Assembly (NCBI GenBank): GCA_017395555.1
Contig: JAFPUE010000074.1
Location: 10,005 to 74,004, forward strand
Source: Ruminiclostridium sp.
GTDB taxonomy: Bacteria > Bacillota > Clostridia > Oscillospirales > Ruminococcaceae
Direction of reading: 5' to 3'
Length of the DNA: 64,000 nt
Position numbers and translations under genes: made by a program. This document shows positions 47,670 through 63,025 of the stretch, piece after piece. Position 1 is the stretch's first letter, and every line of letters starts with the position of its first letter. The notes beneath the pieces were generated by a model. The model ran no database searches, was not told the DNA's origin, and saw nothing but the letters and a program-made list of their open reading frames with translations.

Positions 47670-47712
47670 AAGCCTTGCTTTCCTGTAACGGGAAAACAAG
47701 GCTTGTTTTATT
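47670..47712. terminator. Probable bidirectional terminator between the AraC gene and the radical SAM operon
   Basis: AAGCCTTG..TTCC/GGAA..CAAGGCTT stem with an A-tract before and a T-tract after. Confidence 0.7.
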
Positions 47713-47719
47713 TCTGATC

Positions 47720-48772
47720 TCACAGCAGCGCCGCTTCCATTCCCACAACACCGCCGCCGATATGCGCGTCGCTCTCTCCGTTCCACAGCACCTCATAAAG
47801 CCTGCTGCCGTACCGCACACAGCGCATTTTCCCCACCGCATCACACAGCGGATCGTTCTCGAACCCGCCCCACAGCAGCATAGGGAACCCGCTCCGATAC
47901 GCCGCCGAGCGCAGGAATTTACCGCAAAGGGCGGGGTCATTGCCGCGCACATAAAGATACGAGACAATGCCGTTTTTTATCATGCCGCCGGCTTTCGGGA
48001 ATGCCGGATAGCCGAAAAGCGCGGTAGGGAAGTGCGAAGCGAGCCTGTATATCCCGCCGTATGAGCACAGCCTGTAATGCTTTGTCGCGCTCTGGTCTCC
48101 GATAAAGCAGCACGCGGCGATCTTCCCGGAGCCGTCGCGCACACAGTAAAACCGCTTGTTCCCGAAGCCCGCGTAAGCCGTGTCGCACGGCGCGAGGGAT
48201 TTTTTGGAAAAGTGCAGCTCCGTTATCTCGTCAAAGCCGGTCATGTCGTCCGTTTCCACCCGGATCACCGGCTTTCCGCGCCCGAGACAGAATGTTGTGT
48301 AATGCCCGATATAGCGGTATTCCGGCATATTTTTCCGCCGCTTTTCGAGCATTTTTATCACGCCCGTGTTGCCGTCGAGTATCGTGGTGTATGTCACCGC
48401 GCAGTCCGACACGAGCTGCCCGGTTATCCCGTAAGCGCGCGGTATGAACGCAAGCCTGCCGCGGTAGTCGTGCCGCACCTTCAGCCCCGTCAGATATGCG
48501 CAGCGAGCCGGTGCTCCGTCAAGATACAAGGTCTGTATGACCGCGCCGCCCACCGCGATGACCCTGCCGGTTTCGGTGTCCTCCGCGGCGAGGATATGTG
48601 CGCAGTCACCGTCGGCTTCAAAGGAAGACAGCGGGGAAGCGCCGCGCAGGAACTGCACATTCAGTCCGCCGGAAAAGCTGCCGCTCTCGAAGATATCGCG
48701 TATATCGCCGTTGTCGGACGGCAGGGCGGGACGCAGGATATATTTCCCGCAGCGCTCACTTCGGAAGCTCAT
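47720..48772 (-). CDS. GNAT-fold acyltransferase-like protein (possibly two GNAT domains)
   Basis: N-terminal LRPALPSD, AYLTGLKVRHDYRG (motif A-like), TTILDGN; last gene of the operon, overlapping the upstream rSAM stop. Confidence 0.65.
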   Translation of the reverse strand: MSFRSERCGKYILRPALPSDNGDIRDIFESGSFSGGLNVQFLRGASPLSSFEADGDCAHILAAEDTETGRVIAVGGAVIQTLYLDGAPARCAYLTGLKVRHDYRGRLAFIPRAYGITGQLVSDCAVTYTTILDGNTGVIKMLEKRRKNMPEYRYIGHYTTFCLGRGKPVIRVETDDMTGFDEITELHFSKKSLAPCDTAYAGFGNKRFYCVRDGSGKIAACCFIGDQSATKHYRLCSYGGIYRLASHFPTALFGYPAFPKAGGMIKNGIVSYLYVRGNDPALCGKFLRSAAYRSGFPMLLWGGFENDPLCDAVGKMRCVRYGSRLYEVLWNGESDAHIGGGVVGMEAALL

Positions 48773-50087
48773 CTAAATTCTCTCCTATCGGAACATTCAT
48801 CTTCTGATCCACCTCGCCGCCGATACGCAGGTTCATTCCCCAGAACAGCCCCCACATCAGCGGGCTTGTGCGTCCGAGGGAGGCGAATCCGCGGCGCATG
48901 ACGGTCCCCGCGGACGAGTACTCCTTGCGGGCATTCCTGCAAACGCTGCTCAGGCGTTCGGGGGAAATACGCTTCGGCACGAACGCGAGCTCGCCGTAAT
49001 TGTAGCCGTCCGCGAGCCACCATTTGTCATACAGCAGCCTGTTTTCGGCTTTGAGCCTGTCGTACAGCCGTGTATTCGGGAACGGCAGCAGGTGATTGAA
49101 CGCGGCGGTGTAGAAGTTATGCTTTTTGGAAAATTCAAGCGCACTCTCTACGGTCCCCTCATCGTCGTTGTCGTAGCCGAAAACGAAAGTCGCGTAAATG
49201 CCGATACCCGCGTCGTGAACGCGCTTCACAAGCTCGTCACGCTCGCCGAGCGCGTAGTTGAACGACTTGTTCATTTGCCTGAGATTGTCCTTGTCAAGGC
49301 TCTCGAAGCCGATCAGTATCAACTCGCACCCGCTCTGTTTCATAGCTTTGAGCAGCGCCTCGTCCTTCGCCATGGACAGCGTTCCCTGACCCGCCCATTT
49401 GATGCCGAGCGGGGTTATCTTCTCGAATAAGCTCATCGCGTTTTTCCTGTCCGCGACGAGGTTGTCGTCAACAAGGAAGAAATACTTGTGCGGCGAAGCC
49501 TTGATATCGTCGATGATAAATTCGTGCGAACGCGCGTGGTAATGCGCATCGTAGAACCGGGAAATCGAGCAGAACTCGCAGGAGTGGCAGCACCCGCGTC
49601 CGGTCTCCACCAGCGACACCGGCAGGTATTTCTTGCCCGTGAAAATGCTCTTGTCCGGGTGTGTGCCGTACGCGCCGACACCGCCGATGTAGCGCTTTTG
49701 CAGTCTGCCTTCCTTCGCGTCGGCTATCATCTGCTGCCACACCGTCTCCGCGTTCCCGACGATAACGCTGTCGCAGTGCAGCTCGGCTTCCTCGGGGCAG
49801 ATAGTCGCGTGGTACCCGCCCATTATCACGGGTATCCCGCGCTCTCTGAAACGCTCTGCAATGCGGTAGCTTCGCTTTGCGGTATATGTCTCCACCGTGA
49901 TGCACACGAGATCGGTGACGGTATCGTAGTTCGGCAGCTCGATGCGGTCATCGTAAAGCTCGGTCTCTATATCCGGCGGCGTGAGCGCTTTCAGCACCGC
50001 GACGGTAAGCGGCTCCATTTTCCATGTGCCGATATATTTCTTTCCCGGCTTCTTCCCGATAGCAGGGAGGATAAAGGTGATCTTCAT
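48756..50087 (-). CDS. Cobalamin-binding domain radical SAM enzyme (RS5, type B)
   Basis: B12-binding region (DLVCITVET, MGGYHAT), RGCCHSCEFC, VDDN, SGC..ILIGFES, PFPNTRLY; MKITFI start in an ATGA overlap. Confidence 0.92.
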   Translation of the reverse strand: MKITFILPAIGKKPGKKYIGTWKMEPLTVAVLKALTPPDIETELYDDRIELPNYDTVTDLVCITVETYTAKRSYRIAERFRERGIPVIMGGYHATICPEEAELHCDSVIVGNAETVWQQMIADAKEGRLQKRYIGGVGAYGTHPDKSIFTGKKYLPVSLVETGRGCCHSCEFCSISRFYDAHYHARSHEFIIDDIKASPHKYFFLVDDNLVADRKNAMSLFEKITPLGIKWAGQGTLSMAKDEALLKAMKQSGCELILIGFESLDKDNLRQMNKSFNYALGERDELVKRVHDAGIGIYATFVFGYDNDDEGTVESALEFSKKHNFYTAAFNHLLPFPNTRLYDRLKAENRLLYDKWWLADGYNYGELAFVPKRISPERLSSVCRNARKEYSSAGTVMRRGFASLGRTSPLMWGLFWGMNLRIGGEVDQKMNVPIGENLDELPK

Positions 50088-51433
50088 AGTGATTCTCTTT
50101 CTTGATCGGAAGGAATGTCCGAGTTGTCGCACATGACGGAGCGCGTGAATTTGTGCCATTTGTCCGCGTAGCCCTTGTAGCCGAGATTGAGCGGTATCGA
50201 GAGCCACGGGCTGTGGCGCATGGGCGCAAGGCGTTTGAGAATGCTGCCCGTGGTGTAGGTCATTCTCCACGCGCGGTCTGTGCCTTCTTCGAGCTGCTCC
50301 TTCGTCATGTTCTTCGGCTTGAAGACGCAGTGCTGCACATCGTACATCGCCCAGTTGCGCTCGGTAATGCGTCCCTCGCGGTCAAGCTGCGCGTACAGCT
50401 CCGTGCGCGGGAACGGCGTAAGTATGGAGTAGCGTGGCAGGTCAATTTTCGCCTTTATGACGGTCTCGACGGTGCGCTCGAAAACGCTCTCGTCCTCCTC
50501 GTCGCCGCCGAACGCGAAGCAGCCCTGCACAAGTATGCCGTTGTCGTGCAGGCGCTTCATAAGGTCAATGTAGCCCTCAACCTTGTTCACGCCCTTGTGG
50601 ATGTATTTCTGCGACTCCTGCGTTACCGACTCGAAGCCGATCAGCAGCCCCTTGCAGCCGCTTTTTCTGAATACGGTGATGATCTCGTCGTCAATGCCGA
50701 CGGAGGACGTGACCAGCCCCACCCACATCATTTTCAGCGGTATCATCGCCCCGAAAAGCTCCAGCGCGTAGGCTCTGTCGGTGATGAGGTTCACGTCCGG
50801 GAACAGCACGGTCTTTGAGTGCAGCGCTTCTATCTCGGCGATGACTTCCTTTACCGGGCGCTTATAGACCGGCTTTCCGAACGCCGCCGGGTATGCGCAG
50901 AATGTGCAGGTGTGGCAGCACCCGCGTATCGCCTCGACGGTGTTTATGGTTATGTAGCGCTTTTTGTTCAGCAGCTCACGCCGCGGGAACGGTCTGCCCT
51001 CTATGGAAAAATCGCAGTTCTGCGCGTACAGCTTCTTGTGCTCGCCTTTCATAAAGTCGCGTATGAACTGCGGGAAGGTCTGTTCGGAAAAGCCCGTGAA
51101 AACAACGTCCGCGTGCTGTGCCGCCTCCTGCGGCAGCATAGACGGGTGAACGCCGCCGATAAATACGGTTATCCCTCTGCGCCGGTAGTAGTCGGCATAG
51201 GCATAGCAGCGCGGCGCGGTGCCGGTTATGCAGGTTATGCCGATAAGATCGGCTTCGATATCCAGCGGTATCTTTCCCGCCGTCTCGTCGTATATCACGA
51301 CTTCGGCGTTTGCTTCCTCTGGTACGAGCGCGGCAAGCGTCGTGAGCGTCAGCGGCGCGTAATGCAGCGATTTGCCGAAGCTGCCCGAATATCTGTGCAT
51401 AGCGCCCGCCGGTGCGAGCAGCGCTATCTTCAT
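50084..51433 (-). CDS. Cobalamin-binding domain radical SAM enzyme (RS4, type A)
   Basis: DLIGIT, IGGVHPS, RGCCHTCTFC, SGCKGLLIGFES, LTPFPRTELY; MKIALL start after AGGAAG. Confidence 0.92.
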   Translation of the reverse strand: MKIALLAPAGAMHRYSGSFGKSLHYAPLTLTTLAALVPEEANAEVVIYDETAGKIPLDIEADLIGITCITGTAPRCYAYADYYRRRGITVFIGGVHPSMLPQEAAQHADVVFTGFSEQTFPQFIRDFMKGEHKKLYAQNCDFSIEGRPFPRRELLNKKRYITINTVEAIRGCCHTCTFCAYPAAFGKPVYKRPVKEVIAEIEALHSKTVLFPDVNLITDRAYALELFGAMIPLKMMWVGLVTSSVGIDDEIITVFRKSGCKGLLIGFESVTQESQKYIHKGVNKVEGYIDLMKRLHDNGILVQGCFAFGGDEEDESVFERTVETVIKAKIDLPRYSILTPFPRTELYAQLDREGRITERNWAMYDVQHCVFKPKNMTKEQLEEGTDRAWRMTYTTGSILKRLAPMRHSPWLSIPLNLGYKGYADKWHKFTRSVMCDNSDIPSDQERESL

Positions 51434-51437
51434 AGCT

Positions 51438-52943
51438 TCACTTCCTGTCAAAATATATGTCCCACCCGCTTTTCCTGCTGAGAAAGGCGGGTTTGATGTC
51501 GCCGAGCCGCATACCGTCGTCGGTCAGCCGGCGCAGATATGCTTCCTTTGCGTTACCGGTCACTTTAACCGCTCGCGCGTGTGTGAGCTGTCCGAGCTCG
51601 CGGCAGTAGTTATAGTGGTAGCTTTCGCGGAGCGCCCTGTCGAGCACGTCGTCCGGAATGTCCGCTTCGGTGTAGAGCACATAGCCCTTGTTCTCCGGCG
51701 CGAGCAGGCAGAATTTGTCTGCGATGCCGAGCTTTACGCACACGCCGCGCACAAACTCGTCGGTGAGCTTTTCGCCGCACAGATCGCTCGTGATCCCGCT
51801 CCTGCGCAGAAATCTTATCCGCGGCGCTGCGTCCGGATATGTTTCGATAACTTCGATAACGTCGCCCGTCATATAGCGGTACAGCCCGCCGCCCGTGGTC
51901 ACGATAAGCTCGTATTCGCCCGTGCGCAGCCCGTCCGCGGTGCAGATCCCGCCGTCCCGCATAAACTCGAAGAAGTGCGATGTGACGCAGAGCCGCCCGC
52001 CTTCCTCTCCGACAAGCGGGAATGACGCGAAATATTCCGTCGCGAGCAGACCCTTCGGCTGCATATATACCGACGGGAACAGCTTTCGCAGCGCCTGTGC
52101 GTCCTCCGCGGCGCTCCCGTCCGCCCAGCAGCTTATTATCCGCAGATCGGGGAAGACCCTGTCGAACCTGTCCTCGCACAGCGCCTTGTATATTCCGTCT
52201 GCGCGCTTTTCCGGCAGGCTTTTGCGAATGTTGTCAAATCCGCGTTTTATATGCTCACACAGTATGGTCAGGAACGTCGGGTTCCATACCGATATCAGCG
52301 TCAGACTGCCGCAGTTAAGGAGCTGCCTTGCCGTTTCGAGCCAGAACGCCTCTGTGCTTTCGGAGAATTTCACGCTGCCGTCAACGGCGAATATCCTGTC
52401 CATGAGCGCTTGCGTGAACCGTCCGAAGTACGCCGCGTCCTCCTCGAAGCCGACGGGTATCCCGGCTTTCGTGTAGGTCTTTCCCGCAGTCACCGGCGTT
52501 ATTGACCAATAGCTTTTGCCGGACATCACCCCGGGAACGTTCGTGTATATGTCGTACAGCCACGGCTTTATGCCGCGCTGAAACTCCGCTTTCAGGGACG
52601 CGGTGTAGGGTATCAGCTTTTTCCCGCCGGACGAGCCGCTTGTCGGCTCGAACAGCAGAACCTTTTCCGCCGTCAGCACATTTTCCGCACCCTCCGCGAT
52701 ATCGTTTATGTACGGCTCGTAATCCTCATATTTCGTCAGCGGCACCTTCGCGGCAAAGCGCTCATAGCAGCCGATATCCGCAAAGCCGTATTTCCTGCCG
52801 TACCGTGTTCCGGCATTTTTCCGGAGCAGGGAAAGCAGGTATTCGCGCTGTGCCTTTCCGATATCGTGTACCGCCCGGAACCGTCTGTGCTCGCCGCCGT
52901 ACATGAGCCTGCACGCGCCGTTTACAAGTCCGCAGATGTTCAT
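51438..52943 (-). CDS. GH3 (auxin-responsive-like) family acyl-acid amido synthetase / adenylating enzyme
   Basis: QREYLLSLLRKNAGTRYG, VPLTKYEDYEPYI, PTSGSSGGKKLIP, LATE, HFFEF, YELIVTTGGGLYRYMTGD, GEKL. Confidence 0.87.
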   Translation of the reverse strand: MNICGLVNGACRLMYGGEHRRFRAVHDIGKAQREYLLSLLRKNAGTRYGRKYGFADIGCYERFAAKVPLTKYEDYEPYINDIAEGAENVLTAEKVLLFEPTSGSSGGKKLIPYTASLKAEFQRGIKPWLYDIYTNVPGVMSGKSYWSITPVTAGKTYTKAGIPVGFEEDAAYFGRFTQALMDRIFAVDGSVKFSESTEAFWLETARQLLNCGSLTLISVWNPTFLTILCEHIKRGFDNIRKSLPEKRADGIYKALCEDRFDRVFPDLRIISCWADGSAAEDAQALRKLFPSVYMQPKGLLATEYFASFPLVGEEGGRLCVTSHFFEFMRDGGICTADGLRTGEYELIVTTGGGLYRYMTGDVIEVIETYPDAAPRIRFLRRSGITSDLCGEKLTDEFVRGVCVKLGIADKFCLLAPENKGYVLYTEADIPDDVLDRALRESYHYNYCRELGQLTHARAVKVTGNAKEAYLRRLTDDGMRLGDIKPAFLSRKSGWDIYFDRK

Positions 52944-53635
52944 TTGAACAGCAGCTCCGGTGCGTGCTTGCGAAGCAGGGTGCGGTCTATTTTGGCGAGA
53001 CAGGCGAGATCGTTGCCCTGTGCGTGACCGGGATTGGCGGAGCTGAAAAACGCAACGTCCTTATTTTTCAGCCGGTGCTCGTCGATATCCGCAACACCGG
53101 GCTTCAGCCTGTCCTTTGTGTGCCTGTATTCTATCACGCCGCTCTGCGGGTCATACTCGCCGGGATAGAGCGCCGAGGCGTAAGCGTCGATGATCTTCTT
53201 CTCGTATTCCGGCACAGCCCCCTTGTACGACGGGTAAAATTCCCGCCAGAACAGCGGCAGTATGCGGTATGTCTTATATCCCTTGCAGATAAGGAACCAG
53301 TAAAATTCATCATACTTTTCGGCGAACGGAAACCAGAACTGCGCCCAGACGCGGAAAAGCTCGGTGTCGCCCCAGTAGTCCTTATGTATGATCGTATCGC
53401 CGGAGAACATACCGTGAACTTCTTTCCCGTCCACGTTCACGGACATGACCTTCTGCGTCGTGAAGCCGACGATACGCCCGCCGTCATCGTGCAGTATTAT
53501 GCAGTAGTCCTTCGCGAAGAAGTCGCGCTCGAACACCGCTCTGTCCATATTTTCGTAGAACTCGTCCATAAGCGCGAACATTGCGTCTATATCCTGCGCG
53601 GAGACCTCGCTTATTTGTTTTACAGTTCCTTTCAT
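52940..53635 (-). CDS. Conserved hypothetical protein, probable GNAT/acyl-synthase fold
   Basis: IVGFTT, FSGDTIIHKDYWG (motif A-like), YWFLICKGYKTYR, NPGH..G.DLAC; ATGA-coupled to GH3; GAGG RBS. Confidence 0.65.
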   Translation of the reverse strand: MKGTVKQISEVSAQDIDAMFALMDEFYENMDRAVFERDFFAKDYCIILHDDGGRIVGFTTQKVMSVNVDGKEVHGMFSGDTIIHKDYWGDTELFRVWAQFWFPFAEKYDEFYWFLICKGYKTYRILPLFWREFYPSYKGAVPEYEKKIIDAYASALYPGEYDPQSGVIEYRHTKDRLKPGVADIDEHRLKNKDVAFFSSANPGHAQGNDLACLAKIDRTLLRKHAPELLFK

Positions 53636-53656
53636 GCTTCCTCATTCCTTATTGCC

Positions 53657-54112
53657 TTAACTTTCCAGAACGAATCTGGCAACTCTGACATTTCCGTCCG
53701 TTTCATATGACCGGATACCGAATCCGCATTTTTTCGTGTAGAATAATACATTTTCGGTTTTATCAGCCGGAGTAACCAATGTAAAGCTGCTCCAACCGGT
53801 GTAATATGACTTGACAAAATCAATTGCGGACGATCCGATGCCTTTTCTCTGAAACTCCGGGATAACACATAAGCAGCCGATCTCATATACTCCCTGCCGC
53901 AGTTCTTTGCATGAGATACACCCAACCGGTCTTTCATCGCACAGAATTATGAATTTTGGGTAATCAACGATCGACTGCCTCATCATTTCCGTGGTCTTTC
54001 CGTAAGCGGGGCATCCGCCGTATCTTATATGATCGTCATAGAACGAAGAATTGTAAATATCTATCAGCAATTCCGAATCTGTTGATTCGGCTTTTCTGAA
54101 TTCTGTCTTCAT
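53657..54112 (-). CDS. GNAT family N-acetyltransferase (lower GC than neighbours)
   Basis: LCVIPEFQRKGIGS, N..FYTKKCGF; GGGAG RBS. Confidence 0.85.
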   Translation of the reverse strand: MKTEFRKAESTDSELLIDIYNSSFYDDHIRYGGCPAYGKTTEMMRQSIVDYPKFIILCDERPVGCISCKELRQGVYEIGCLCVIPEFQRKGIGSSAIDFVKSYYTGWSSFTLVTPADKTENVLFYTKKCGFGIRSYETDGNVRVARFVLES

Positions 54113-54125
54113 AGATAATAACTCC

Positions 54126-55463
54126 CTAATTCTCCAGTCCGAACCGCAGTCCCTGCTTTTTGAAGACTTCCTTGCGGAACAGCGGGTTGTAGATGAGATA
54201 TGTCATAAATCTGTACGGCGTGCGCATATTCGTGTGCGGCTCAAATGCCCGCGTGAAGATCGAGCCCGCGCTGTTGAAGCGGCGTCGGCAGTCGAAAGAG
54301 ATCTCGGTGAGCTCGTCCGGTGTCATATTCTTCGGGACGATGCTCGCGTAGTTGAAGCGGTACTGCTCGTGCAGCCACCACTTCCCGCCGTACAGCAGCC
54401 TGCCCTCGCGCTCCAGCCGCTCGTAAAGCGGGGTATTGGGGTAGGGCATAAGTATGTTGAACGCCGCGAAGGTGAACTTGCTCCGTATCGCGAAATCGCA
54501 GGTAGCGCGTATAGATTCGATAGTATCGCCGTCGTGTCCCACCGTGAATGCCGCCCATGTCTGGAGCCCCCACCTGCGCAGCTCCGCGATCTCGTGCGCG
54601 TACATATCCCCGGACGCTTTTCTGTTCGTGTATTTGTGCATCTCGTTTATGCACTGCGGGGAGATGCTCTCGAAGCCGATGACCAGCCCGAGACAGCCGC
54701 TTTTCACCATGAGCCGCATAAGCTCCTCGTCCGCGAGCATATCCATGCTCCCCTGACTGACCCAGCGCACTTTGAGCGGTATCAGCGCCCGGAAAAGCTC
54801 CTTCGCCTTCTCGTGCTCGCAGACGATGTTGTCGTCCACAAAGAACAGCAGCTTTCGCTTCTGCGACTTTATCTCGTTCACGACGTCCTGTACCGGGCGG
54901 CAGAAATGCTTCGCCCCGAAATACACAGACGACGCGCAGAAGCTGCACCTGTGGCTGCACCCGCGGGAGAACTGCAGCAGCGTTATCGGCAGATAGCCCT
55001 TGCCCTCGAAAATGTCACGCCGCGCTATTATGCCGGTCTGCGGACATTCGGGCTGAACCGCGTTGTAGCGTTTTTGCAGCCTGCCCGCGCGGAAATCCTC
55101 ACACATCTGCGCCCACACCGGCTCCGCGTCGCCGACGATCACGCTGTCGCAGTGCTCCGCCACCTCGTCCGGTATCAGCATGGCGTGCATTCCGCCCATA
55201 ACCACGGTCACGCCGCGCTTTCTGTACTCCGCGCTTATCTCGTAGGCGCGCCTTGCCGTGAACGTCTCAACCGTTATCCCGACGATGTCCGTCGGCTCTT
55301 CATACGGTATCGGCTCCATGCGGTCATCGTACAGAGTGACGGCGATATCCGGCGGTGTCAGCGCTGCAAGAATACCGAGCGGCAGCGGCTCCATACGCCC
55401 CTCGTCAACGTAAAGGCTGTGCTCTCTGCGTCCGATATTAGGTTTTATCAGTGTCAGCTTCAC
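54126..55463 (-). CDS. Cobalamin-binding domain radical SAM enzyme (RS3, type B)
   Basis: GTG start after GGAGGGG; DIVGITVET, MGGMHAM, RGCSHRCSFC, FFVDDN, SGCLGLVIGFES, PYPNTPLY. Confidence 0.92.
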   Translation of the reverse strand: MKLTLIKPNIGRREHSLYVDEGRMEPLPLGILAALTPPDIAVTLYDDRMEPIPYEEPTDIVGITVETFTARRAYEISAEYRKRGVTVVMGGMHAMLIPDEVAEHCDSVIVGDAEPVWAQMCEDFRAGRLQKRYNAVQPECPQTGIIARRDIFEGKGYLPITLLQFSRGCSHRCSFCASSVYFGAKHFCRPVQDVVNEIKSQKRKLLFFVDDNIVCEHEKAKELFRALIPLKVRWVSQGSMDMLADEELMRLMVKSGCLGLVIGFESISPQCINEMHKYTNRKASGDMYAHEIAELRRWGLQTWAAFTVGHDGDTIESIRATCDFAIRSKFTFAAFNILMPYPNTPLYERLEREGRLLYGGKWWLHEQYRFNYASIVPKNMTPDELTEISFDCRRRFNSAGSIFTRAFEPHTNMRTPYRFMTYLIYNPLFRKEVFKKQGLRFGLEN

Positions 55464-56760
55464 CGAGCACCCCTCCAAGAATCTGTCCCTGCTTGCTTTT
55501 TATCTCTCTGCGGGAAATAATGTTCGCCGCCACGAACACGAAAAAATTTACCGGCAGGAAGTTGTACGCGTTCCCGAAAAGCCGCTTTATAACGCAGCCG
55601 CGGGAATAAAACCTCGTGCGTATGTCAAGGCAGCCGTCCCGCAGCTCCTCCGGTGTCATATTCTTCGGCACGAACGCCGTTTCGCCGTACCGGTAGTTGT
55701 CCGACAGCCACCATTTTTTGTATCGCAGTCTGCCCTCCCGCTCCATTTTCTCATACACCTTCGTGCCGGGCATCGGTATGAGCGGGTTGAAGTTCGTGAC
55801 CGCGATGCCGTTTCTTACCGCGAAATCAAGCGTTTTTTCAAACACGTCCGGCTTGTCGCCGTCGCAGCCGAGCACGAATGTCCCGTATATCATCAGCCCG
55901 TGCCGGCGGATATTTCGTATCACGGTCTCGTAATCCGCCGCCGCGTTTGCCGCCTTGTGCATTTCCGAAAGGCTTTCCGCGTTCAGGCTCTCAAAGCCCA
56001 TGAGCACAAGAATACACCCGGACTTTTTCATAAGCGTGAGCAGCTCGTCGTCCCTCGCCGCGTCCATGCTTATCTGACACGCCCACTTTTTGCGCAGCGG
56101 TATCAGCGCCGTGAAGAGCTCGACGGCGGAAGCGCGGTCATAGAAGATGTTGTCGTCCGCGAAGAAAATTATCCTCTCCCTCGCGGCTTTAAGTTCGCGG
56201 ACAGTCATATCGACGGGTTTTCTGCGCACGCACCGGTACATCGTCTTTATCGAGCAGAACGCGCAGTCGAATTTGCAGCCCCGCGAGAGCTGGTACACGC
56301 CTATGCCGTGGTAGCGGTGACTGTACGTTTTCCCGTCGTCATGCAGCTCCGTGAGCGGTGCGGTCTCGCCGGATATGTATGTGCGCTCCGGGCAGCCCTT
56401 TTCGCAGTCCGCGAGGAACCGCTCCCACACGCCCTCAGCGTCGCCTATCAGCACTGTATCTGCGTATTTCAGCATTTCGTCCGCCATAACGCTCGCGTGG
56501 AATCCGCCCATAACTATCGTGTTTTTCCCGGTCCTGTATTTTTTCGCGAGGATATACGCGCGCTTGGCGGTGAACGTCTCGACGGAAAAAGCGATGATGT
56601 CCGCGTCGATCCGCTCGGGCAGCCTGTCGGTGCGCTCGTCGAAAAACTCAATGCCGAACCGTTCCGGCGTAAGGCTTTTTATTATGCCGAAAAATATCGG
56701 CTTCATAGCGTCCGAGCTTATATGCTCGAACATATTCAGTCTTATTACAGCGATCTTCAT
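55438..56760 (-). CDS. Cobalamin-binding domain radical SAM enzyme (RS2, type B)
   Basis: DIIAFSVET, MGGFHAS, RGCKFDCAFC, FFADDN, SGCILVLMGFES, PMPGTKVY. Confidence 0.92.
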   Translation of the reverse strand: MKIAVIRLNMFEHISSDAMKPIFFGIIKSLTPERFGIEFFDERTDRLPERIDADIIAFSVETFTAKRAYILAKKYRTGKNTIVMGGFHASVMADEMLKYADTVLIGDAEGVWERFLADCEKGCPERTYISGETAPLTELHDDGKTYSHRYHGIGVYQLSRGCKFDCAFCSIKTMYRCVRRKPVDMTVRELKAARERIIFFADDNIFYDRASAVELFTALIPLRKKWACQISMDAARDDELLTLMKKSGCILVLMGFESLNAESLSEMHKAANAAADYETVIRNIRRHGLMIYGTFVLGCDGDKPDVFEKTLDFAVRNGIAVTNFNPLIPMPGTKVYEKMEREGRLRYKKWWLSDNYRYGETAFVPKNMTPEELRDGCLDIRTRFYSRGCVIKRLFGNAYNFLPVNFFVFVAANIISRREIKSKQGQILGGVLGEADTDKT

Positions 56761-56763
56761 TGA

Positions 56764-58062
56764 TTATTTTGCCTTTTTCCCGTTTCCGAGAAATTTGAAG
56801 CCTATGTTCGCGCCGAGCAGAATGAACACATACCACCTGTGCCGCCACGGGGAAACCCGCATTCTGCGGAATATCCGCCGCCATGTGAACGCCCGCCGCC
56901 ATACGTCGCGGTGGATCTCGTCAAGCCGTTCGGCGGTCATATTCGCCGGCGCGAACACCGCGGTCTTCTGGTTGTAGCGGTCCCACTGCCGCGAGATTAT
57001 CCTTCCCGCGCTGTCAAGCTCGCGGTAGAGCCTTGTGCCGGGGTAGGGGGTCAGCACCGCGAAACGGCAGCAGTCGAGCCCGAGCGCGTCCACACGTTCC
57101 GGGAGCGCAAGAAGCTCCTCCTCGGTGTCGCTGTCGAAGCCGAGCACGAAGCAGCCGTTCACCGCCATTCCGTGCGAGTGGATATTGTCGATGATCTCCT
57201 TGTATTTGTCCGACTGCCGGAAGCGCTTGTCCGCGTCGTTCAGCGACGATGTGTTCATGGATTCGAGCCCGATCAGCACGCCCCTGCACCCGCTCTCATA
57301 CGCCGCCGCCATAAGCTCGTGATCGTAGCCGAAATCCGCGGTAGCGTTGCACGCCCACAGCTTTTTCAGCGGCTTCATCGCCTCCATCAGCTTCATCGCG
57401 TACTCGCGCTTCCCGAAGAAGTTCGGGTCATAGAATATCACATTCCGGCTCTTTATCCCGCGCAGCTCCTCGATCACGCCCTCGACGGGTCTCGGGTCAC
57501 TCCGCCACATCGTGCGCATGGAGCAGTATTTGCAGTTGTTGAAGCAGCCGCGGTCTGCTATCACGGCAGGAATGCCGAGGGTGTGCTTTTTGGTGGTGAT
57601 CTCGCGGGCGGGTATCGGGTGATCCGCCATGCAGACGTTATAGTCGCGGTAAAACTGCTTCGGGCAGCCGTTCGCGAAATCGCGCAAAAATGCCGGGACG
57701 GAGTTCTCCGCGGGACCGGCGATAACGGTGTCCGCGTGTGTCAGCGCTTCCTCGCGCATAGCTGTCGGGTGATATCCGCCCACCGCGACGTAAGAGCCGC
57801 GCTTCCTGAATTCGTCGCAGTGCTTGTAGCCGGTGAGCGCGGACGACGTCTCGAACGAGATCATCACCAGGTCATAGTGTACGCTGTCGTAATTGACGCG
57901 CTGTGAGTTCTCGTCCACGGTATCAATCCGCTCGTACAGTCCCTCCGGCACGAGCGAATACAGCACCGCGAGTGTCATGGACGGGTAAGAAAGCATACCT
58001 GAAAAATGTCCCCGGTATGCCTTTTCCTTTTCGTTCCATGCGTGTATCATAAGAATTTTCAT
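56764..58062 (-). CDS. Cobalamin-binding domain radical SAM enzyme (RS1, type A)
   Basis: MKILMI start after AGGGG; DLVMISFET, VGGYHPT, RGCFNNCKYC, SGCRGVLIGLES, LTPYPGTRLY. Confidence 0.92.
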   Translation of the reverse strand: MKILMIHAWNEKEKAYRGHFSGMLSYPSMTLAVLYSLVPEGLYERIDTVDENSQRVNYDSVHYDLVMISFETSSALTGYKHCDEFRKRGSYVAVGGYHPTAMREEALTHADTVIAGPAENSVPAFLRDFANGCPKQFYRDYNVCMADHPIPAREITTKKHTLGIPAVIADRGCFNNCKYCSMRTMWRSDPRPVEGVIEELRGIKSRNVIFYDPNFFGKREYAMKLMEAMKPLKKLWACNATADFGYDHELMAAAYESGCRGVLIGLESMNTSSLNDADKRFRQSDKYKEIIDNIHSHGMAVNGCFVLGFDSDTEEELLALPERVDALGLDCCRFAVLTPYPGTRLYRELDSAGRIISRQWDRYNQKTAVFAPANMTAERLDEIHRDVWRRAFTWRRIFRRMRVSPWRHRWYVFILLGANIGFKFLGNGKKAK

Positions 58063-58093
58063 AGTAATATCCCCTGACAGTTCTGTACTTTCT

Positions 58094-58122
58094 ATCATAA
58101 CACATTTCCTGCTTTTTTGCAA
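58094..58122 (-). promoter_or_regulatory. Sigma-A promoter of the radical SAM/GH3 operon
   Basis: Minus strand TTGCAA-17 nt-TATGAT with TG at the extended -10 position, about 30 nt before the RS1 ATG. Confidence 0.7.
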
Positions 58123-58158: not shown

Positions 58159-58187
58159 AAAAAGCCTGTACCATGCGGTACAGGCCT
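58159..58187 (-). terminator. Intrinsic terminator after the membrane GGDEF gene
   Basis: GCCTGTACC/GGTACAGGC stem with a T5 tract on the minus strand. Confidence 0.75.
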
Positions 58188-58201
58188 TCCGGTATTTCGT
58201 A

Positions 58202-59929
58202 TTATTCGTCTTTCTTTTCGCCGTCATTGTTTGCCGGTGTTTCGATAATAAGCTCGTCGAGGGATATTGCGTCTTCCGCGGGCTTGCTGTCAGCAGCTTC
58301 CTCTGCCGCCGCTTCATTGGCTGCGGGAGTTTCGATGATAAACTCGTCGAGGGATATGGCATCTTCCGCGGGCTTGCTGTCTGCTGCCGGAGCATCTGCG
58401 GGCTTGTCGGAATCCGGGATGACCTCAACAAAATCGCTCTCCGAGAATCCGCGGCTGTTGCCTGCACGCAGCGAATAACCGTGTCCGCCGCTGTCCTTGA
58501 TCTTATTGAGCTCTTCCTCTGCGATGACCGCGAGATCTTCATAATCTCTGCCGTTGTCCGGAACGGTGACACCGCCGACGGAAACGCCCACGGAAACGCT
58601 TACCGAAGCGCCGAACTGCTTTTTGAGAGCATCGTTGATCTGCTCTTCAAGTCTCATGGTGAGGTGCGCGATAACGCCCTCGCTGGTGCAGTCCTTGAGG
58701 AATACCGCGAACAGCTCGCCGCCGAGCTTTCCTCTTACGTCGTCGGTATTGGTATTGTTCCTGAGCAGCGTACCGAAGCTCGCTATGAGCTTGTTTGCTT
58801 CCTCGTGACCGTAGAGGTTGTTTATGCTCTTGAAGCCGTCGAAGCTGATGTTGAGCAGAGTACCGCTCTGCGAGGAGCAGGTCTCGGTGAGTATGTCAAT
58901 GAGCTTTGTGCGGTTGTAAAGACCTGTGATGCTGTCGATAGCGGCTTCCTCGTTAAGTCTGCTGTTGCGAAGCTCCTGCTCGGTAACGTCGTGGATCATA
59001 ACGATAAGGCAGTCGCAGTCGCCGCGGTAGTCGGTGTAGCTGGTCTTTTTGAGTGCGAACACGCGATCGCCGCGCTTTATCGACTCGGACTCGGTAACGG
59101 TGGAAACGAAGGTGCTGAGCTTTTCGGGATCGGATTCGGAGAGTTCAAGGAACACGCTCTTTGCCGTTCTGTTCGCGAAGAGGAAGTGCTTTTCCTTGTC
59201 GAGGATGATAACGCCGTCATTGGTGCTGTCGATACTGCAGCTCTTACCAAATTCGAGGATATCCGCGATATCCAGCTTTCTTACCATAACGAGCAGCAGG
59301 ATATCAGCGATAAGGACTGCGATAAGTGTTATGAGACCGGAGGACATGATGAATCCGCCGGCAGCCGCGCAGATAACGAGCACGATCGAGAAGAACGCGA
59401 GTGCGTTCATAGCGGGGGAGACCTTAACGAGCTTGCGTCCCATAGCGGAGAGGGCGAACCCGGACACCGCAGCCGCGAGCAGTGCCATGATGCCGTTTAC
59501 GATGTAGAGTACCACATTGTAGTTGCCGGAGACAGCGCCGTCTTTGATCGCAACGCTTGTTATACCCATACCGTGAATGTGCATTGTTATCATAAACAGT
59601 ATGTAAATTCCCGTTATTACAGCCGCAGTGAGTTTGAACTGCTTGGGTACGAGCACACCGCTGACCTCGGTTATCGCGAATGCGAAGGATACGCCGGTCA
59701 CAGCGAGGGCGATGAATGTGATCGCGGTGGTGAGTACAGCCGCGTTCAGGTTAAGGTTACCCGACTCGGAGTACATGGACAGGAGATAGCTTGCGGCGGC
59801 GAAAACGAACGAGCCGGAGCAGGCTGCCGCGGTCCATGTCTTTGTACCGGTTGATCTTGAAAAGACCGCTAATGCGCCGGTGATCACGGATATCAGCATA
59901 ATTGCAGCCATTAAAATTTGTTCTAACAT
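58202..59929 (-). CDS. Membrane (7TM-like) sensor + PAS + degenerate GGDEF protein with acidic repeat tail
   Basis: About 7 TM N-terminus; DGVIILD..FAN..A (PAS); DSITGLYNR, FKSINNLYGH, KLGGELF. Confidence 0.82.
   Translation of the reverse strand: MLEQILMAAIMLISVITGALAVFSRSTGTKTWTAAACSGSFVFAAASYLLSMYSESGNLNLNAAVLTTAITFIALAVTGVSFAFAITEVSGVLVPKQFKLTAAVITGIYILFMITMHIHGMGITSVAIKDGAVSGNYNVVLYIVNGIMALLAAAVSGFALSAMGRKLVKVSPAMNALAFFSIVLVICAAAGGFIMSSGLITLIAVLIADILLLVMVRKLDIADILEFGKSCSIDSTNDGVIILDKEKHFLFANRTAKSVFLELSESDPEKLSTFVSTVTESESIKRGDRVFALKKTSYTDYRGDCDCLIVMIHDVTEQELRNSRLNEEAAIDSITGLYNRTKLIDILTETCSSQSGTLLNISFDGFKSINNLYGHEEANKLIASFGTLLRNNTNTDDVRGKLGGELFAVFLKDCTSEGVIAHLTMRLEEQINDALKKQFGASVSVSVGVSVGGVTVPDNGRDYEDLAVIAEEELNKIKDSGGHGYSLRAGNSRGFSESDFVEVIPDSDKPADAPAADSKPAEDAISLDEFIIETPAANEAAAEEAADSKPAEDAISLDELIIETPANNDGEKKDE
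58225..58386. repeat. 90-bp-period duplication encoding AADSKPAEDAISLDE[FL]IIETPA
   Basis: Two near-identical copies in the C-terminal tail of the GGDEF protein. Confidence 0.85.
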
Positions 59930-60209: not shown

Positions 60210-60833
60210 TCAGAATATCTGTCCCGGGAGTTTCAGCTTTTCCTTTGGCGGGAACGCCTTGTCAAATTCCTCTACATCCTCGTCCTTGACATAGTACCCC
60301 TGCGGAGTCTGATAAACGCCCGTAACGCCGTCGAGATAGCCCGGTATCAGCTCTTTGCCCAGGAAGAACGAAGCGTCCGCGTCTTCCGGCAGATCGTGGT
60401 ATCTTATGCCGAATTTGCTTGAATAATCGAAGCCGCTCTTGCCGTAGAAGCCGATGTTGCCCTCAAACAGCACCGCACCGAAGCCGAGCTCCGCCGCCTT
60501 TTCCAGCGAGTAGTCGAGCAGTATCTTACCGTAGCCCCTGCGTTTGAGCTCCGGGGTTATGCAGACAGGACCCATTGTCAGCACGTCGATGATTCTGCCG
60601 TCGTCGGCATTTATGATCGTCTTCATGAACATATTCTGCCCTATGAGCCTGTCGTCCTGCTCCATAACAAAATCGAGCTCCTTTACAAAAGCCGGATCGT
60701 CACGCAGAACGTGGATAACGTAATGCTCCGAGCAGCCGGGGCGATAGACGTTCCAGAACGCTTCTCTGATAAGATATTCGACATCTCTGTGGTCTTCGGG
60801 TCTTTCGGCGCGAATTATATAGTTATTGTTCAT
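60210..60833 (-). CDS. GNAT family N-acetyltransferase (YhbS-like)
   Basis: IRAERPED, REAFWNVYRPGC.EH, MGPVCITPELKRRGYG, FYGKSGF. Confidence 0.88.
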   Translation of the reverse strand: MNNNYIIRAERPEDHRDVEYLIREAFWNVYRPGCSEHYVIHVLRDDPAFVKELDFVMEQDDRLIGQNMFMKTIINADDGRIIDVLTMGPVCITPELKRRGYGKILLDYSLEKAAELGFGAVLFEGNIGFYGKSGFDYSSKFGIRYHDLPEDADASFFLGKELIPGYLDGVTGVYQTPQGYYVKDEDVEEFDKAFPPKEKLKLPGQIF

Positions 60834-60843
60834 TTGTTTTACC

Positions 60844-61500
60844 TCACTTATTATTTTCTGTAAAATCCTTTATTTCCTTTTCGAGCATACGGTACACGTT
60901 CGCAAGCAGGAACCCGTCCGCCGTGGCGTGGTTGAGACGCACCGTGAGCGGCATCATCAGCCTGCCGTTTTCCTCGCGGTATCTGCCCCAGTTCACGATC
61001 GGCAGGAAGTACAGATAGCCGTCCGGGAGCTCGACATTCACGCTGTCATAGGACAGCCACGATATGTATGACGCGTCGAACCAGTTCGGGTGATTTGCCG
61101 CGTCAAGCAAGTATTCCCGCGTCTGCTTCGCTTTTTCCAGATCCTCGGAAGCACAGCGGCAGAATGTCCCGTAGTCCTCGTAATACCGCGAGTAAACGGG
61201 TGTGCAGGTCTGCGTGTCATCGTGGAAAACGTACTGCGTCGGGTTAATGACATCGTAGCAGATAAGCTCGTCAGACTGCCACAGGTACCCCATTTTATAG
61301 TCATCGCGGGAATTGAGCACCTTTGTCAGCAGGTAGAGGAAGTCTATGTAGAATTTCGTTCCTCTGCGTTTTGCCGAGCTCACAAGCTCCGTTACATCCA
61401 CCCTTGCCGTCATCGACACCGAGCACTTGCAGTCCTCGGTGAAGTGGCGGTACACACCTTTTCTGTAATAGGTCTCCTTGTCAATTACTTTATATTCCAT
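60844..61500 (-). CDS. Type A chloramphenicol O-acetyltransferase family protein
   Basis: Length 218 aa; YRK..YRHF, SMTARVDVT, ISWLSY, PIVNWGRY, MPLTVRLNHATADGF (catalytic H...DG). Confidence 0.8.
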   Translation of the reverse strand: MEYKVIDKETYYRKGVYRHFTEDCKCSVSMTARVDVTELVSSAKRRGTKFYIDFLYLLTKVLNSRDDYKMGYLWQSDELICYDVINPTQYVFHDDTQTCTPVYSRYYEDYGTFCRCASEDLEKAKQTREYLLDAANHPNWFDASYISWLSYDSVNVELPDGYLYFLPIVNWGRYREENGRLMMPLTVRLNHATADGFLLANVYRMLEKEIKDFTENNK

Positions 61501-61595: not shown

Positions 61596-62255
61596 TTATT
61601 CAGTTTGTTTTTTGCTGTCGGTCAATATCACGCACCCGTGATAGATAAGATACAGCCCGGCGCTGAGCAGCACAGAGCCGATGATATCCGTAAGCCAGTG
61701 TACGCCGGAAACGGTCCTCCCCGACACCATAAACAGCGAGAACAGCAGCGCGAACACATCAACTGCATATTTCACGGCAGCTTTTTTCAGCCTGCGGTGC
61801 GACTGAAAGCACAGCGTCGGCATTACGCTCAGCACAAGAAGCGTGGTTGACGACGGGTAGGACGCTTCCATAAATCCGTCTATCGGTATCGGTCTGTAAT
61901 TTATCGGTATCATCTCGAATATCAGATATGCCGCGATCACGAGAATATAGTACAGCCCGAGCAGCAGGATATCCGCATCTACTCTGAACAGGCTCCTTCT
62001 GCCGAAAAGCTGTACCGCGCCCAGCACGGCGAATATCATACATACGCCTATCGGCACAAGTCCGAGCCAGTCCGTGACCGTGTAAAGTGTCATATTCACG
62101 CCTGTTGCCCGGTGGAACGCCGTATTTAAGGACGCAAATCCTATGTTTGTTCCGTTCTGTCCAACGGGCTGAACGTCAACGGTCTGTATGAGAAATGTCC
62201 AGATAACGAACAGGAGCAATGCCGATATGCCCGCGATCAATGTTTTGTTTTTCAA
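61596..62255 (-). CDS. PAP2-family membrane phosphatase
   Basis: NYRP, SYPSSTT, GRTVSGVHWLTDIIG; TM helices; TTG start. Confidence 0.85.
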   Translation of the reverse strand: MKNKTLIAGISALLLFVIWTFLIQTVDVQPVGQNGTNIGFASLNTAFHRATGVNMTLYTVTDWLGLVPIGVCMIFAVLGAVQLFGRRSLFRVDADILLLGLYYILVIAAYLIFEMIPINYRPIPIDGFMEASYPSSTTLLVLSVMPTLCFQSHRRLKKAAVKYAVDVFALLFSLFMVSGRTVSGVHWLTDIIGSVLLSAGLYLIYHGCVILTDSKKQTE

Positions 62256-62272: not shown

Positions 62273-63025
62273 TCAGTCTTTCAGTTCAACTTTTTTCGGC
62301 GTGAATTTCAGCACATACAGCAGATACAGTCCCGCAACGGCAATGCGTATGCTGACATTGAGGAGCTGTCCGCCCTGCTCGCTGCCCGCAATGTCGTTAA
62401 GAAGCTGCGCCGAGCCGAAGCCCGCGAGAACATTGTTGAGCGAGTGGAAAACTATGCAGGGAACGAGGCTGCCGGTCCTGATGAAGATGAACACGAGCAG
62501 GAAGCCCACGGTTATTGCATAGGCTATCTGTAACAGGTTGCTGACGATGTCGTAGCCGTTGAACAGGTTCACGATATGCCCGATACCGAATGTCACGGCG
62601 GAAACAATTATCGCGGAGGTCATGTTCTTCTTCGCCATGCCCCTGAACAGAAATCCGCGGAAGATCATTTCCTCAAGGTAGCCCGTAAACAGCATATACA
62701 CCGAGTGTATCACGATAGCGGGTGAGTCGTACTGCGGAGCGAAGCCGAATATGATTCCGACGGACGCGGTCAGCAGCAGGGGAATATACAGCAGCATTTT
62801 TCCCGCCGGAACCTCCGGCTTGCAGAGACCGAGGTGATAGCCCAGCCTGTTTTTGGAAATGAACACGGAAAGCACCGCAAACAGCACGATGCCGAATACC
62901 GCTTCCGCGAGAAATTCGATGCCGATCATCTCCGAAAACTGATTCATTACAGTCGAGCCCACAACGTATATCACTATGATTATTATTGCAAAAGTCACTT
63001 CGTTTTTATCAAACAGCTTTTTCAT
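62273..63025 (-). CDS. CPBP (CAAX/Abi) family intramembrane metalloprotease
   Basis: EEMIFRG, FGIGH, TGSLVPCIVFHSLNN. Confidence 0.9.
   Translation of the reverse strand: MKKLFDKNEVTFAIIIIVIYVVGSTVMNQFSEMIGIEFLAEAVFGIVLFAVLSVFISKNRLGYHLGLCKPEVPAGKMLLYIPLLLTASVGIIFGFAPQYDSPAIVIHSVYMLFTGYLEEMIFRGFLFRGMAKKNMTSAIIVSAVTFGIGHIVNLFNGYDIVSNLLQIAYAITVGFLLVFIFIRTGSLVPCIVFHSLNNVLAGFGSAQLLNDIAGSEQGGQLLNVSIRIAVAGLYLLYVLKFTPKKVELKD

Follow-up and report, generated by a model that had tools for sequence, protein, structure and literature searches.

We analyzed a 64,000-nucleotide stretch of DNA from Ruminiclostridium sp. (positions 10,005 to 74,004 of contig JAFPUE010000074.1, assembly GCA_017395555.1), here called the window. 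Its minus strand holds nine open reading frames (ORFs) that run from 58062 to 47720 in the order RS1-RS2-RS3-G1-G2-GH3-RS4-RS5-G3 (Table 1; ORF calls with likely starts). RS1 to RS5 are radical S-adenosylmethionine (SAM) enzymes of the cobalamin (B12) type, GH3 is a ligase of the family of that name, and G1, G2, and G3 are GNAT-like proteins. In operon order, the intergenic gaps are +3, -26, +13, +21, -4, +4, -4, and -17 nt. The first-pass annotation, made from the DNA letters alone, had listed the same nine genes in this order as overlapping or at most about 20 nt apart, and the ORF calls bear this out. The genes form a tightly packed operon and are predicted to be co-transcribed. The cassette that they represent is real, conserved, and uncharacterized, and it matches no pathway found in the literature covered here.

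A single promoter and a single terminator had been proposed to bound the operon. Both sites are present, and no other stem across the 13.7 kb examined is as long as that of the terminator candidate. Promoter-like sites, however, occur at chance level in the region (10 found against 8.2±3.1 in shuffled sequence), so it is position that singles out the promoter candidate. A Pfam scan of the nine genes found no polyketide synthase or nonribosomal peptide synthetase, no peptidase, and no exporter, and no small ORF resembling an acyl carrier protein (ACP) came out of a simple motif scan for carrier proteins. Both results agree with the first-pass annotation.

Table 1. Genes and candidate signals of the operon (window positions).
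Feature	Position	Strand	Remarks
Sigma70-like promoter candidate	58094..58122	-	TTGCAA-17-TATGAT, extended -10, 9/12 consensus
RS1, B12-type radical SAM enzyme, 432 aa	56764..58062	-	Long-branch offshoot, RS4 side; optional
RS2, B12-type radical SAM enzyme, 440 aa, clade C	55438..56760	-	Optional, mostly with RS3
RS3, B12-type radical SAM enzyme, 445 aa, clade D	54126..55463	-	Final codons displaced by G1 insertion
G1, ordinary GNAT acetyltransferase, 151 aa	53657..54112	-	Passenger, outside the pathway
G2, single GNAT fold with C-terminal extension of ~100 aa, 231 aa	52940..53635	-	Core, GH3 partner
GH3-family ATP-dependent acyl-amide synthetase, 501 aa	51438..52943	-	Core; PF03321, 127 bits
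RS4, B12-binding radical SAM enzyme, 449 aa, clade A	50084..51433	-	Core
RS5, B12-type radical SAM enzyme, 443 aa, clade B	48756..50087	-	Core
G3, tandem GNAT, N-myristoyltransferase fold, 350 aa	47720..48772	-	Core; predicted amine N-acyltransferase
Intrinsic terminator candidate	47670..47704	-	14-pair stem, T-rich tail

CxxxCxxC and GGxH are intact in each of the five radical SAM enzymes, as had been noted before, and each passes the Radical_SAM cut-off in Pfam. An N-terminal B12-binding region had also been ascribed to all five. A match is present in each, but only RS4 lies above the curated cut-off (36.4 bits against 32.1); the other four score 26–31.8 bits (E 1e-5 to 1e-7). A weak DUF4070-type C-terminal tail is found in four of the enzymes. 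None of them reached a named equivalog for B12-type radical SAM enzymes in NCBIfam among the models tried (HpnJ, HpnR, BchE, PhpK, the ladderane model TIGR04072, TsrM, ApyD, and KedN5), the best score being 97 bits against cut-offs of 250–775. In a tree of 168 radical SAM sequences, RS4, RS5, RS2, and RS3 fall in clades A, B, C, and D, respectively, next to a small group E and a group F. RS1 lies on a long branch in group E, and its close orthologues were found only in near relatives. A recent tandem duplication of the five enzymes was rejected: they are 30–42% identical and sit in clades of their own with orthologues from other phyla.

The conservation of the cassette was followed through the ligase. 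A GH3 profile found at least 586 relatives in GTDB, of which we kept the 80 nearest to the central sequence P0248; the sample is biased to that center. These best 80 of at least 586 span Chloroflexota, Acidobacteriota, Planctomycetota, Verrucomicrobiota, Bacillota, Gemmatimonadota, Spirochaetota, Omnitrophota, Proteobacteria, and others. In 36 GTDB loci, here called fully flanked, the sequence extends 8 kb or more to either side. G2 is present in all 36 and G3 in 31 (32 if L029 is counted, whose G3 lies in one ORF with RS5). The RS4 and RS5 types, clades A and B, accompany GH3 in 28 of the 36, which bears out the claimed synteny of GH3 with these radical SAM enzymes. Clade A never occurs without B, and clades C and D occur together in 6. 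Of the 88 loci screened, 14 have both C and D, 5 have only C, and one, cut by a contig end, has only D.

Gene order points the same way. With L104 left out as a duplicate contig of L106, G2 stands immediately before GH3 in 55 of the 72 loci that have both, and A immediately before B in 32 of 48. The clostridial forms hold five genes (L075, L129, and L130, the minimal form G2-GH3-RS4-RS5-G3), seven (L025 and L026), or eight (L016 and L128). Of 150 GH3 representatives listed, six long ones were checked for fusions; P0316 joins G2 to GH3 and P0273 joins GH3 to G3, which ties the ligase to both GNATs. Pairwise-identity correlations between core genes (0.59–0.84) are shared through kinship and include an L088 row with the wrong GH3, and they were not used as evidence. 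A five-gene core of RS4, RS5, G3, G2, and GH3 thus recurs across many phyla. RS4 and RS5 are an obligate pair, RS2 and RS3 an optional pair, and RS1 a local extra. The five radical SAM enzymes had been presented together as the defining unit, a description that these counts do not support.

Within the genus the cassette is present in 4 of 108 genomes, the host included; it was also found in 3 of 399 other genomes of the class and 4 of 143 of another family. The host genome is 2.6 Mb and 87% complete, and its close homologues with a named source are those of Oscillospiraceae, Ruminococcus, and similar Clostridia. Relatives of G2 occur in 12 records of a plasmid collection (Burkholderia, Acinetobacter, Citrobacter, and Azospirillum). 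None were found in viral contigs, and carriage of the cassette by phage was set aside on that result.

G1 stands apart from the other genes. Its GC content is 0.43 and its GC at third codon positions is 0.47, against 0.72–0.79 at third positions in the other eight. Ten related RS3-G2 junctions were compared (L016, L024-L026, L111-L113, L117, L124, and L128), and G1 is missing from nine; L016, from a genome of the same genus, has the same operon without it. The exception is L111, where G1 is 99% identical and the flanking proteins are 78–93% identical. The gene is inserted within the final codons of RS3, and the former RS3 stop still overlaps the G2 start. A search of 107 other genomes of the genus found DNA homologues of 68–73% identity at four unrelated sites. 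These copies (L133, L134, L135, and L136) stand between unrelated genes in four genomes; the one in genome G014 adjoins another small GNAT-like gene in an apparent his operon (his genes recognized by eye). Two G1 copies have similar short upstream flanks (AATCGGAATTTGA and AATAGGAATTTAA), and G1 resembles a mobile single-gene cassette. Judged by these features, G1 is a low-GC passenger gene with no predicted pathway role, so the pathway has eight genes rather than nine. On the same grounds (low third-position GC, absence at nine of ten junctions, and homologues at unrelated sites), the earlier claim of three GNAT-fold pathway proteins was rejected: only G2 and G3 belong.

The ligase passes PF23571 as well as PF03321. 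In its segments TSGSSGGKK, LLATE, and GLYRYMTGD we recognize the three nucleotide motifs that the portion of PMC12493201 covered here gives for OlsH and the plant enzymes of the GH3 family. The first-pass annotation had called bacterial GH3s largely uncharacterized, which now needs a qualification: in that portion of PMC12493201, the bacterial GH3 OlsH is shown to make N-acyl-ornithine from free fatty acid, ornithine, and ATP with neither ACP nor coenzyme A (CoA). An operon in which no carrier protein was found suits such a route. On the OlsH equivalog model NF052613, our GH3 scores 41.2 bits against a cut-off of 620. The host genome has a second GH3, on contig C91, which was rejected as a member of the system: it is 25% identical, falls in another clade, and has no radical SAM, G2, or G3 neighbors. 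It belongs to a second GH3 clade in the genus, unrelated to the first (L017 (G000:C91), L018, and L019), that lies beside multi-pass membrane and signaling genes with no radical SAM gene. A GH3 match was seen in 5 of 36 other genus genomes sampled.

Neither G2 nor G3 has a curated Pfam match, yet both are predicted to have GNAT folds, as had been suggested for these two proteins. The AlphaFold2 model of G3 (predicted local distance difference test, pLDDT, 94.1) is a tandem GNAT. Its top Foldseek matches are N-myristoyltransferases (NMTs; E 1e-12, TM about 0.6), and VIA-align superposes it on yeast NMT with Z 19.9, rmsd (root-mean-square deviation) 4.1, and 300 aligned residues. The final residue of G3 (350) falls on the final residue of yeast NMT (455), as ends of the aligned range and not as geometry; the alignment likewise extends to the final residue (402) of Mycobacterium tuberculosis Eis. 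NMT and Eis thus share with G3 both the tandem GNAT fold and the coincidence of the last residues. G3 differs from NMT in being bacterial, lying in a biosynthetic operon, and having no evident protein target; their structural identity is 8–12%, and no NMT sequence-family match was found by Pfam or PDB profile search.

The C-terminus of G3 is strictly kept. Of the G3 homologues in the loci, 68 are complete and stand alone, and every one of them ends in [ED]xxx[LIV]-stop; all 120 database homologues among the matches listed end in ExxxL. The GH3-G3 fusion also ends in the G3-type motif, whereas the C-termini of G2 and GH3 vary. At L029:4675-7200, RS5-type and G3-type domains share one 841-aa ORF with an aberrant C-terminus; this ORF is either a real fusion or an artifact of assembly. 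According to the part of PMC7048800 covered, the base in human NMT1 catalysis is supplied by the C-terminal carboxylate. The NMT fold and a fixed C-terminus at the position of the NMT carboxylate suggest that G3 acylates a primary amine, and from its model G3 is likely an N-acyltransferase of an amine. An NMT fold with a fixed C-terminus aligned to that of NMT is the new element of this analysis.

G2 is modeled as one GNAT fold plus an extension (pLDDT 96.7), with AAC(2')-Ia as its best Foldseek match (TM 0.43/0.56). The residues D38, K42, SGDT 78-81, W113, G119, T122, and N201 are invariant. Of 81 family members, 13 match Acetyltransf_9, weakly, and a G2 profile gave no significant match to PDB sequences. 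The motif A of GNATs usually reads R/QxxGxG. In G2 the loop is YWGxxEL, so the donor may not be plain acyl-CoA.

Taken together, these features lead us to favor, by a modest degree, a reading in which the eight genes would build an amide-linked lipid by two acylations followed by radical decoration. An acyl amide or aminolipid had been proposed as the product from the start and remains the best reading, with the GH3 motifs, the NMT fold of G3, and the lipid-acting neighbors described below in its favor. Two amide-forming enzymes together with G2 suggest that the scaffold has two linkages of the amide or acyl kind. With acyl-CoA as the donor, G3 would place a long acyl chain on a free primary amine, its own C-terminal carboxylate serving as the base. 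GH3 would activate a free carboxylic acid as the acyl-AMP and couple it to an amine. Two orders are conceivable. G3 may act first, with GH3 extending the N-acyl amino acid by a second amine, or GH3 may begin, with an acceptor of the diamino type such as ornithine, lysine, or a polyamine, whose second amine G3 then acylates. G2, beside GH3, may be a further acyltransferase or a substrate-handling partner. RS4 and RS5 would then make the defining C-H modification, most likely a methylcobalamin-dependent C-methylation and possibly a C-C ring closure. Changes particular to a lineage may come from RS2 and RS3, and from RS1; in other hosts, desaturases, hydroxylases, and Rieske oxygenases may play that part. 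The product would probably be retained in the cell envelope.

The radical SAM enzymes could instead work on the same amide scaffold without a cobalamin methyl carrier, in a dehydration, oxidation, or ring formation like those of AprD4, BchE, or HpnJ. HpnJ and BchE are the top NCBIfam models for four of the five, at under a fifth of the cut-off, and 9CCB and AprD4 rank above TsrM, TokK, and CysS in matches to PDB sequences. AprD4 is a dehydratase that is not known to use B12. The weak B12-binding scores fit such chemistry as well. Set against this, the N-terminal domain and GGxH loop are retained in every radical SAM clade, RS4 and its relatives lie above the B12-binding Pfam cut-off, and most cobalamin-dependent radical SAM enzymes are annotated as methylases according to the covered part of a 2026 review (PMC13459092). 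We regard a non-methylating role as unlikely; it partly overlaps the other readings. The covered part of PMC13331322 offers no residue-level test for B12 binding. The host genome encodes CobS, and no cobalamin riboswitch was found in it at 87% completeness. Cobalamin use is a prediction, and so is the choice between methylation and cyclization.

The surroundings of the related loci bear on the nature of the product. We clustered 773 neighboring ORFs of at least 90 aa and scanned one representative per cluster against Pfam. Across 79 loci, the neighbors are desaturases (22), Rieske proteins (16), PAP2 (14), SnoaL (10), SPASM radical SAM proteins (10), and, more rarely, a small membrane protein (9), AurF-like proteins (5), PlsY (3), and a fatty-acid hydroxylase (1). 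At least one of desaturase, PAP2, PlsY, and fatty-acid hydroxylase is found in 26 of the 79. An accessory block of AurF-like diiron protein, desaturase, membrane hexapeptide-repeat protein, and PAP2 recurs in L042, L065, L067, L069, L081, and L082, often with a Rieske oxygenase and SnoaL. Replacement of the RS2/RS3 pair by O2-dependent enzymes was not supported (Fisher p 0.55 over the 79 loci and 1.0 over the 36 flanked loci, kin not being independent); the C/D pair and such neighbors are not mutually exclusive. In L051 and L058, an M28 peptidase, two other radical SAM genes, a FemAB-like GNAT, and a small membrane protein lie between G2 and GH3.

Such a cassette could also yield a multiply methylated soluble small molecule for release, such as a signal, an antibiotic, or a siderophore-like acyl amide. 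Its patchy, mobile distribution and the plasmid records would suit this, as would an Acinetobacter baumannii locus (L108:9129-16808) in which G2, GH3, and G3 are interleaved with HlyD, major facilitator superfamily, and outer-membrane efflux genes (EmrAB-TolC-like), with no radical SAM gene. Most characterized B12-type radical SAM enzymes (TokK, GenK, and CysS) tailor natural products, and plant GH3s act on small acids. However, the operon and the five-gene minimal forms have no exporter, the recurrent neighbors are membrane-lipid enzymes, and the closest fold to G3 is that of a long-chain acyltransferase. We hold a soluble product to be somewhat unlikely.

A protein or peptide might also be the substrate, with G3 lipidating an N-terminus or a lysine and the radical SAM enzymes methylating in the manner of ribosomally synthesized and post-translationally modified peptides (RiPPs). 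G3 shares its fold and terminal carboxylate with NMT and Eis, which act on proteins, and many B12-type radical SAM enzymes methylate peptides. Yet no conserved precursor or target emerged from the clustering of neighboring ORFs (at least 90 aa), RiPP radical SAM models scored far under their cut-offs, the operon has no peptidase, and GH3 ligases take small acids as substrates. This route appears improbable.

Several observations weigh against the amide-lipid reading. The product, substrates, and activities are all predicted from genes and folds. The patchy spread suits an accessory trait more than a housekeeping lipid. Six of the 36 flanked loci have no full-length radical SAM gene (two hold frameshifted pieces), and loci of Burkholderia and Acinetobacter have G2, G3, and GH3 with no radical SAM gene within 12 kb. 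Lipid-acting neighbors are missing from 53 of the 79 loci, and from this operon and its close relatives. Tandem GNATs with small substrates align to G3 with similar Z (MAB_4324 19.2, tied with NMT; glucosamine acetyltransferases 16–18; Eis 14.5), so that long-chain acyl use by G3 remains a prediction. The RS5-G3 ORF of L029, which is outside the 68 and comes from a metagenome-assembled genome with other frameshifts, lacks the G3 end motif. Only one of the five radical SAM enzymes (RS4) passes the B12-binding cut-off, and AprD4 is among their top solved relatives.

Upstream of the operon lies a gene for a GGDEF protein (58202-59929) whose C-terminal tail has the acidic segment DSKPAEDAISLDE twice (window positions 58173-58572). 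Through this repeat the RS1 ORF gains 170 spurious codons at its upstream end. Further upstream are small accessory genes for a GNAT (60210-60833), a chloramphenicol acetyltransferase-family protein (60844-61500; PF00302, 138 bits), a PAP2 protein (61596-62255), and an Rce1-like protein (62273-63025).

Several known systems come near the cassette, the OlsH/OlsI ornithine-lipid pathway nearest of all. The bacterial ceramide pathway (Spt, bCerS, and CerR) uses a GNAT-type enzyme to N-acylate a lipid amine. Desaturase and PAP2 relatives near some cassette loci recall this pathway. Neither the host genome (best 25 bits with BioF as the proxy model, genome 87% complete) nor the recurrent neighbors of the related loci yielded a gene for an alpha-oxoamine synthase like serine palmitoyltransferase (SPT), which may speak against a ceramide route. 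The second system is the OlsH/OlsI pathway of Singulisphaera acidiphila, which, in the covered part of PMC12493201, has a bacterial GH3 with three nucleotide motifs, no carrier protein, and an amide-lipid logic in which GH3 is paired with a further acyltransferase activity. Here the partners of GH3 are two GNAT-fold proteins and not the alpha/beta-hydrolase OlsI, and two to five B12-type radical SAM enzymes are present, whereas that paper mentions neither radical SAM nor cobalamin. No OlsI-type alpha/beta-hydrolase is found among the nine genes, and hydrolase-like neighbors occur in 3+3 of 79 related loci. With 41.2 bits against 620 and no OlsI, membership in this pathway was rejected. The third group comprises the B12-type radical SAM lipid modifiers (HpnP, HpnR, HpnJ, GrsA/B, and the ladderane-cluster enzyme). 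They resemble RS1 to RS5 in a B12-binding-type region (above the cut-off in RS4 alone), a radical SAM domain, a weak DUF4070-type C-terminus (four of the five), and a likely action on unactivated lipid carbons. They differ in that the curated models score far below cut-off and in that here paralogue pairs accompany a GH3.

The cluster may of course be known under another name; it is widespread and occurs in studied genera. Against this, no curated NCBIfam family was reached, literature that pairs GH3 with radical SAM, cobalamin, or gene clusters was not found (most subscription journals lie outside the coverage), and the covered main text of PMC13459092 has no GH3, amide, or aminolipid. Within this coverage, the claim that no characterized pathway matches the gene set stands, and we consider prior characterization very improbable.

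The cassette occurs in at least hundreds of species. Work on it opens up the function of a large uncharacterized clade of bacterial GH3s. Radical SAM lipid modification is almost wholly isoprenoid, the only proposed ketoacyl cases being ladderanes and the Jaw5 product (covered part of PMC13459092). If B12-type radical enzymes act on an amide lipid here, this would be a new branch of radical SAM lipid chemistry, and it might account for orphan lipids of anaerobes and soils that are methyl-branched or cyclic. In a bolder and tentative extension, possible but less likely than not, the product would be a widespread undescribed bacterial membrane lipid. It would be made free of carrier proteins by GH3 and an NMT-like enzyme, and its chains would be methylated or ring-closed by obligate pairs of B12-type radical SAM paralogues, maybe as heterodimers. 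If this is true, radical SAM lipid chemistry would extend from isoprenoids to fatty-acyl amide lipids, and NMT-fold enzymes would gain a role in lipid biosynthesis in bacteria.

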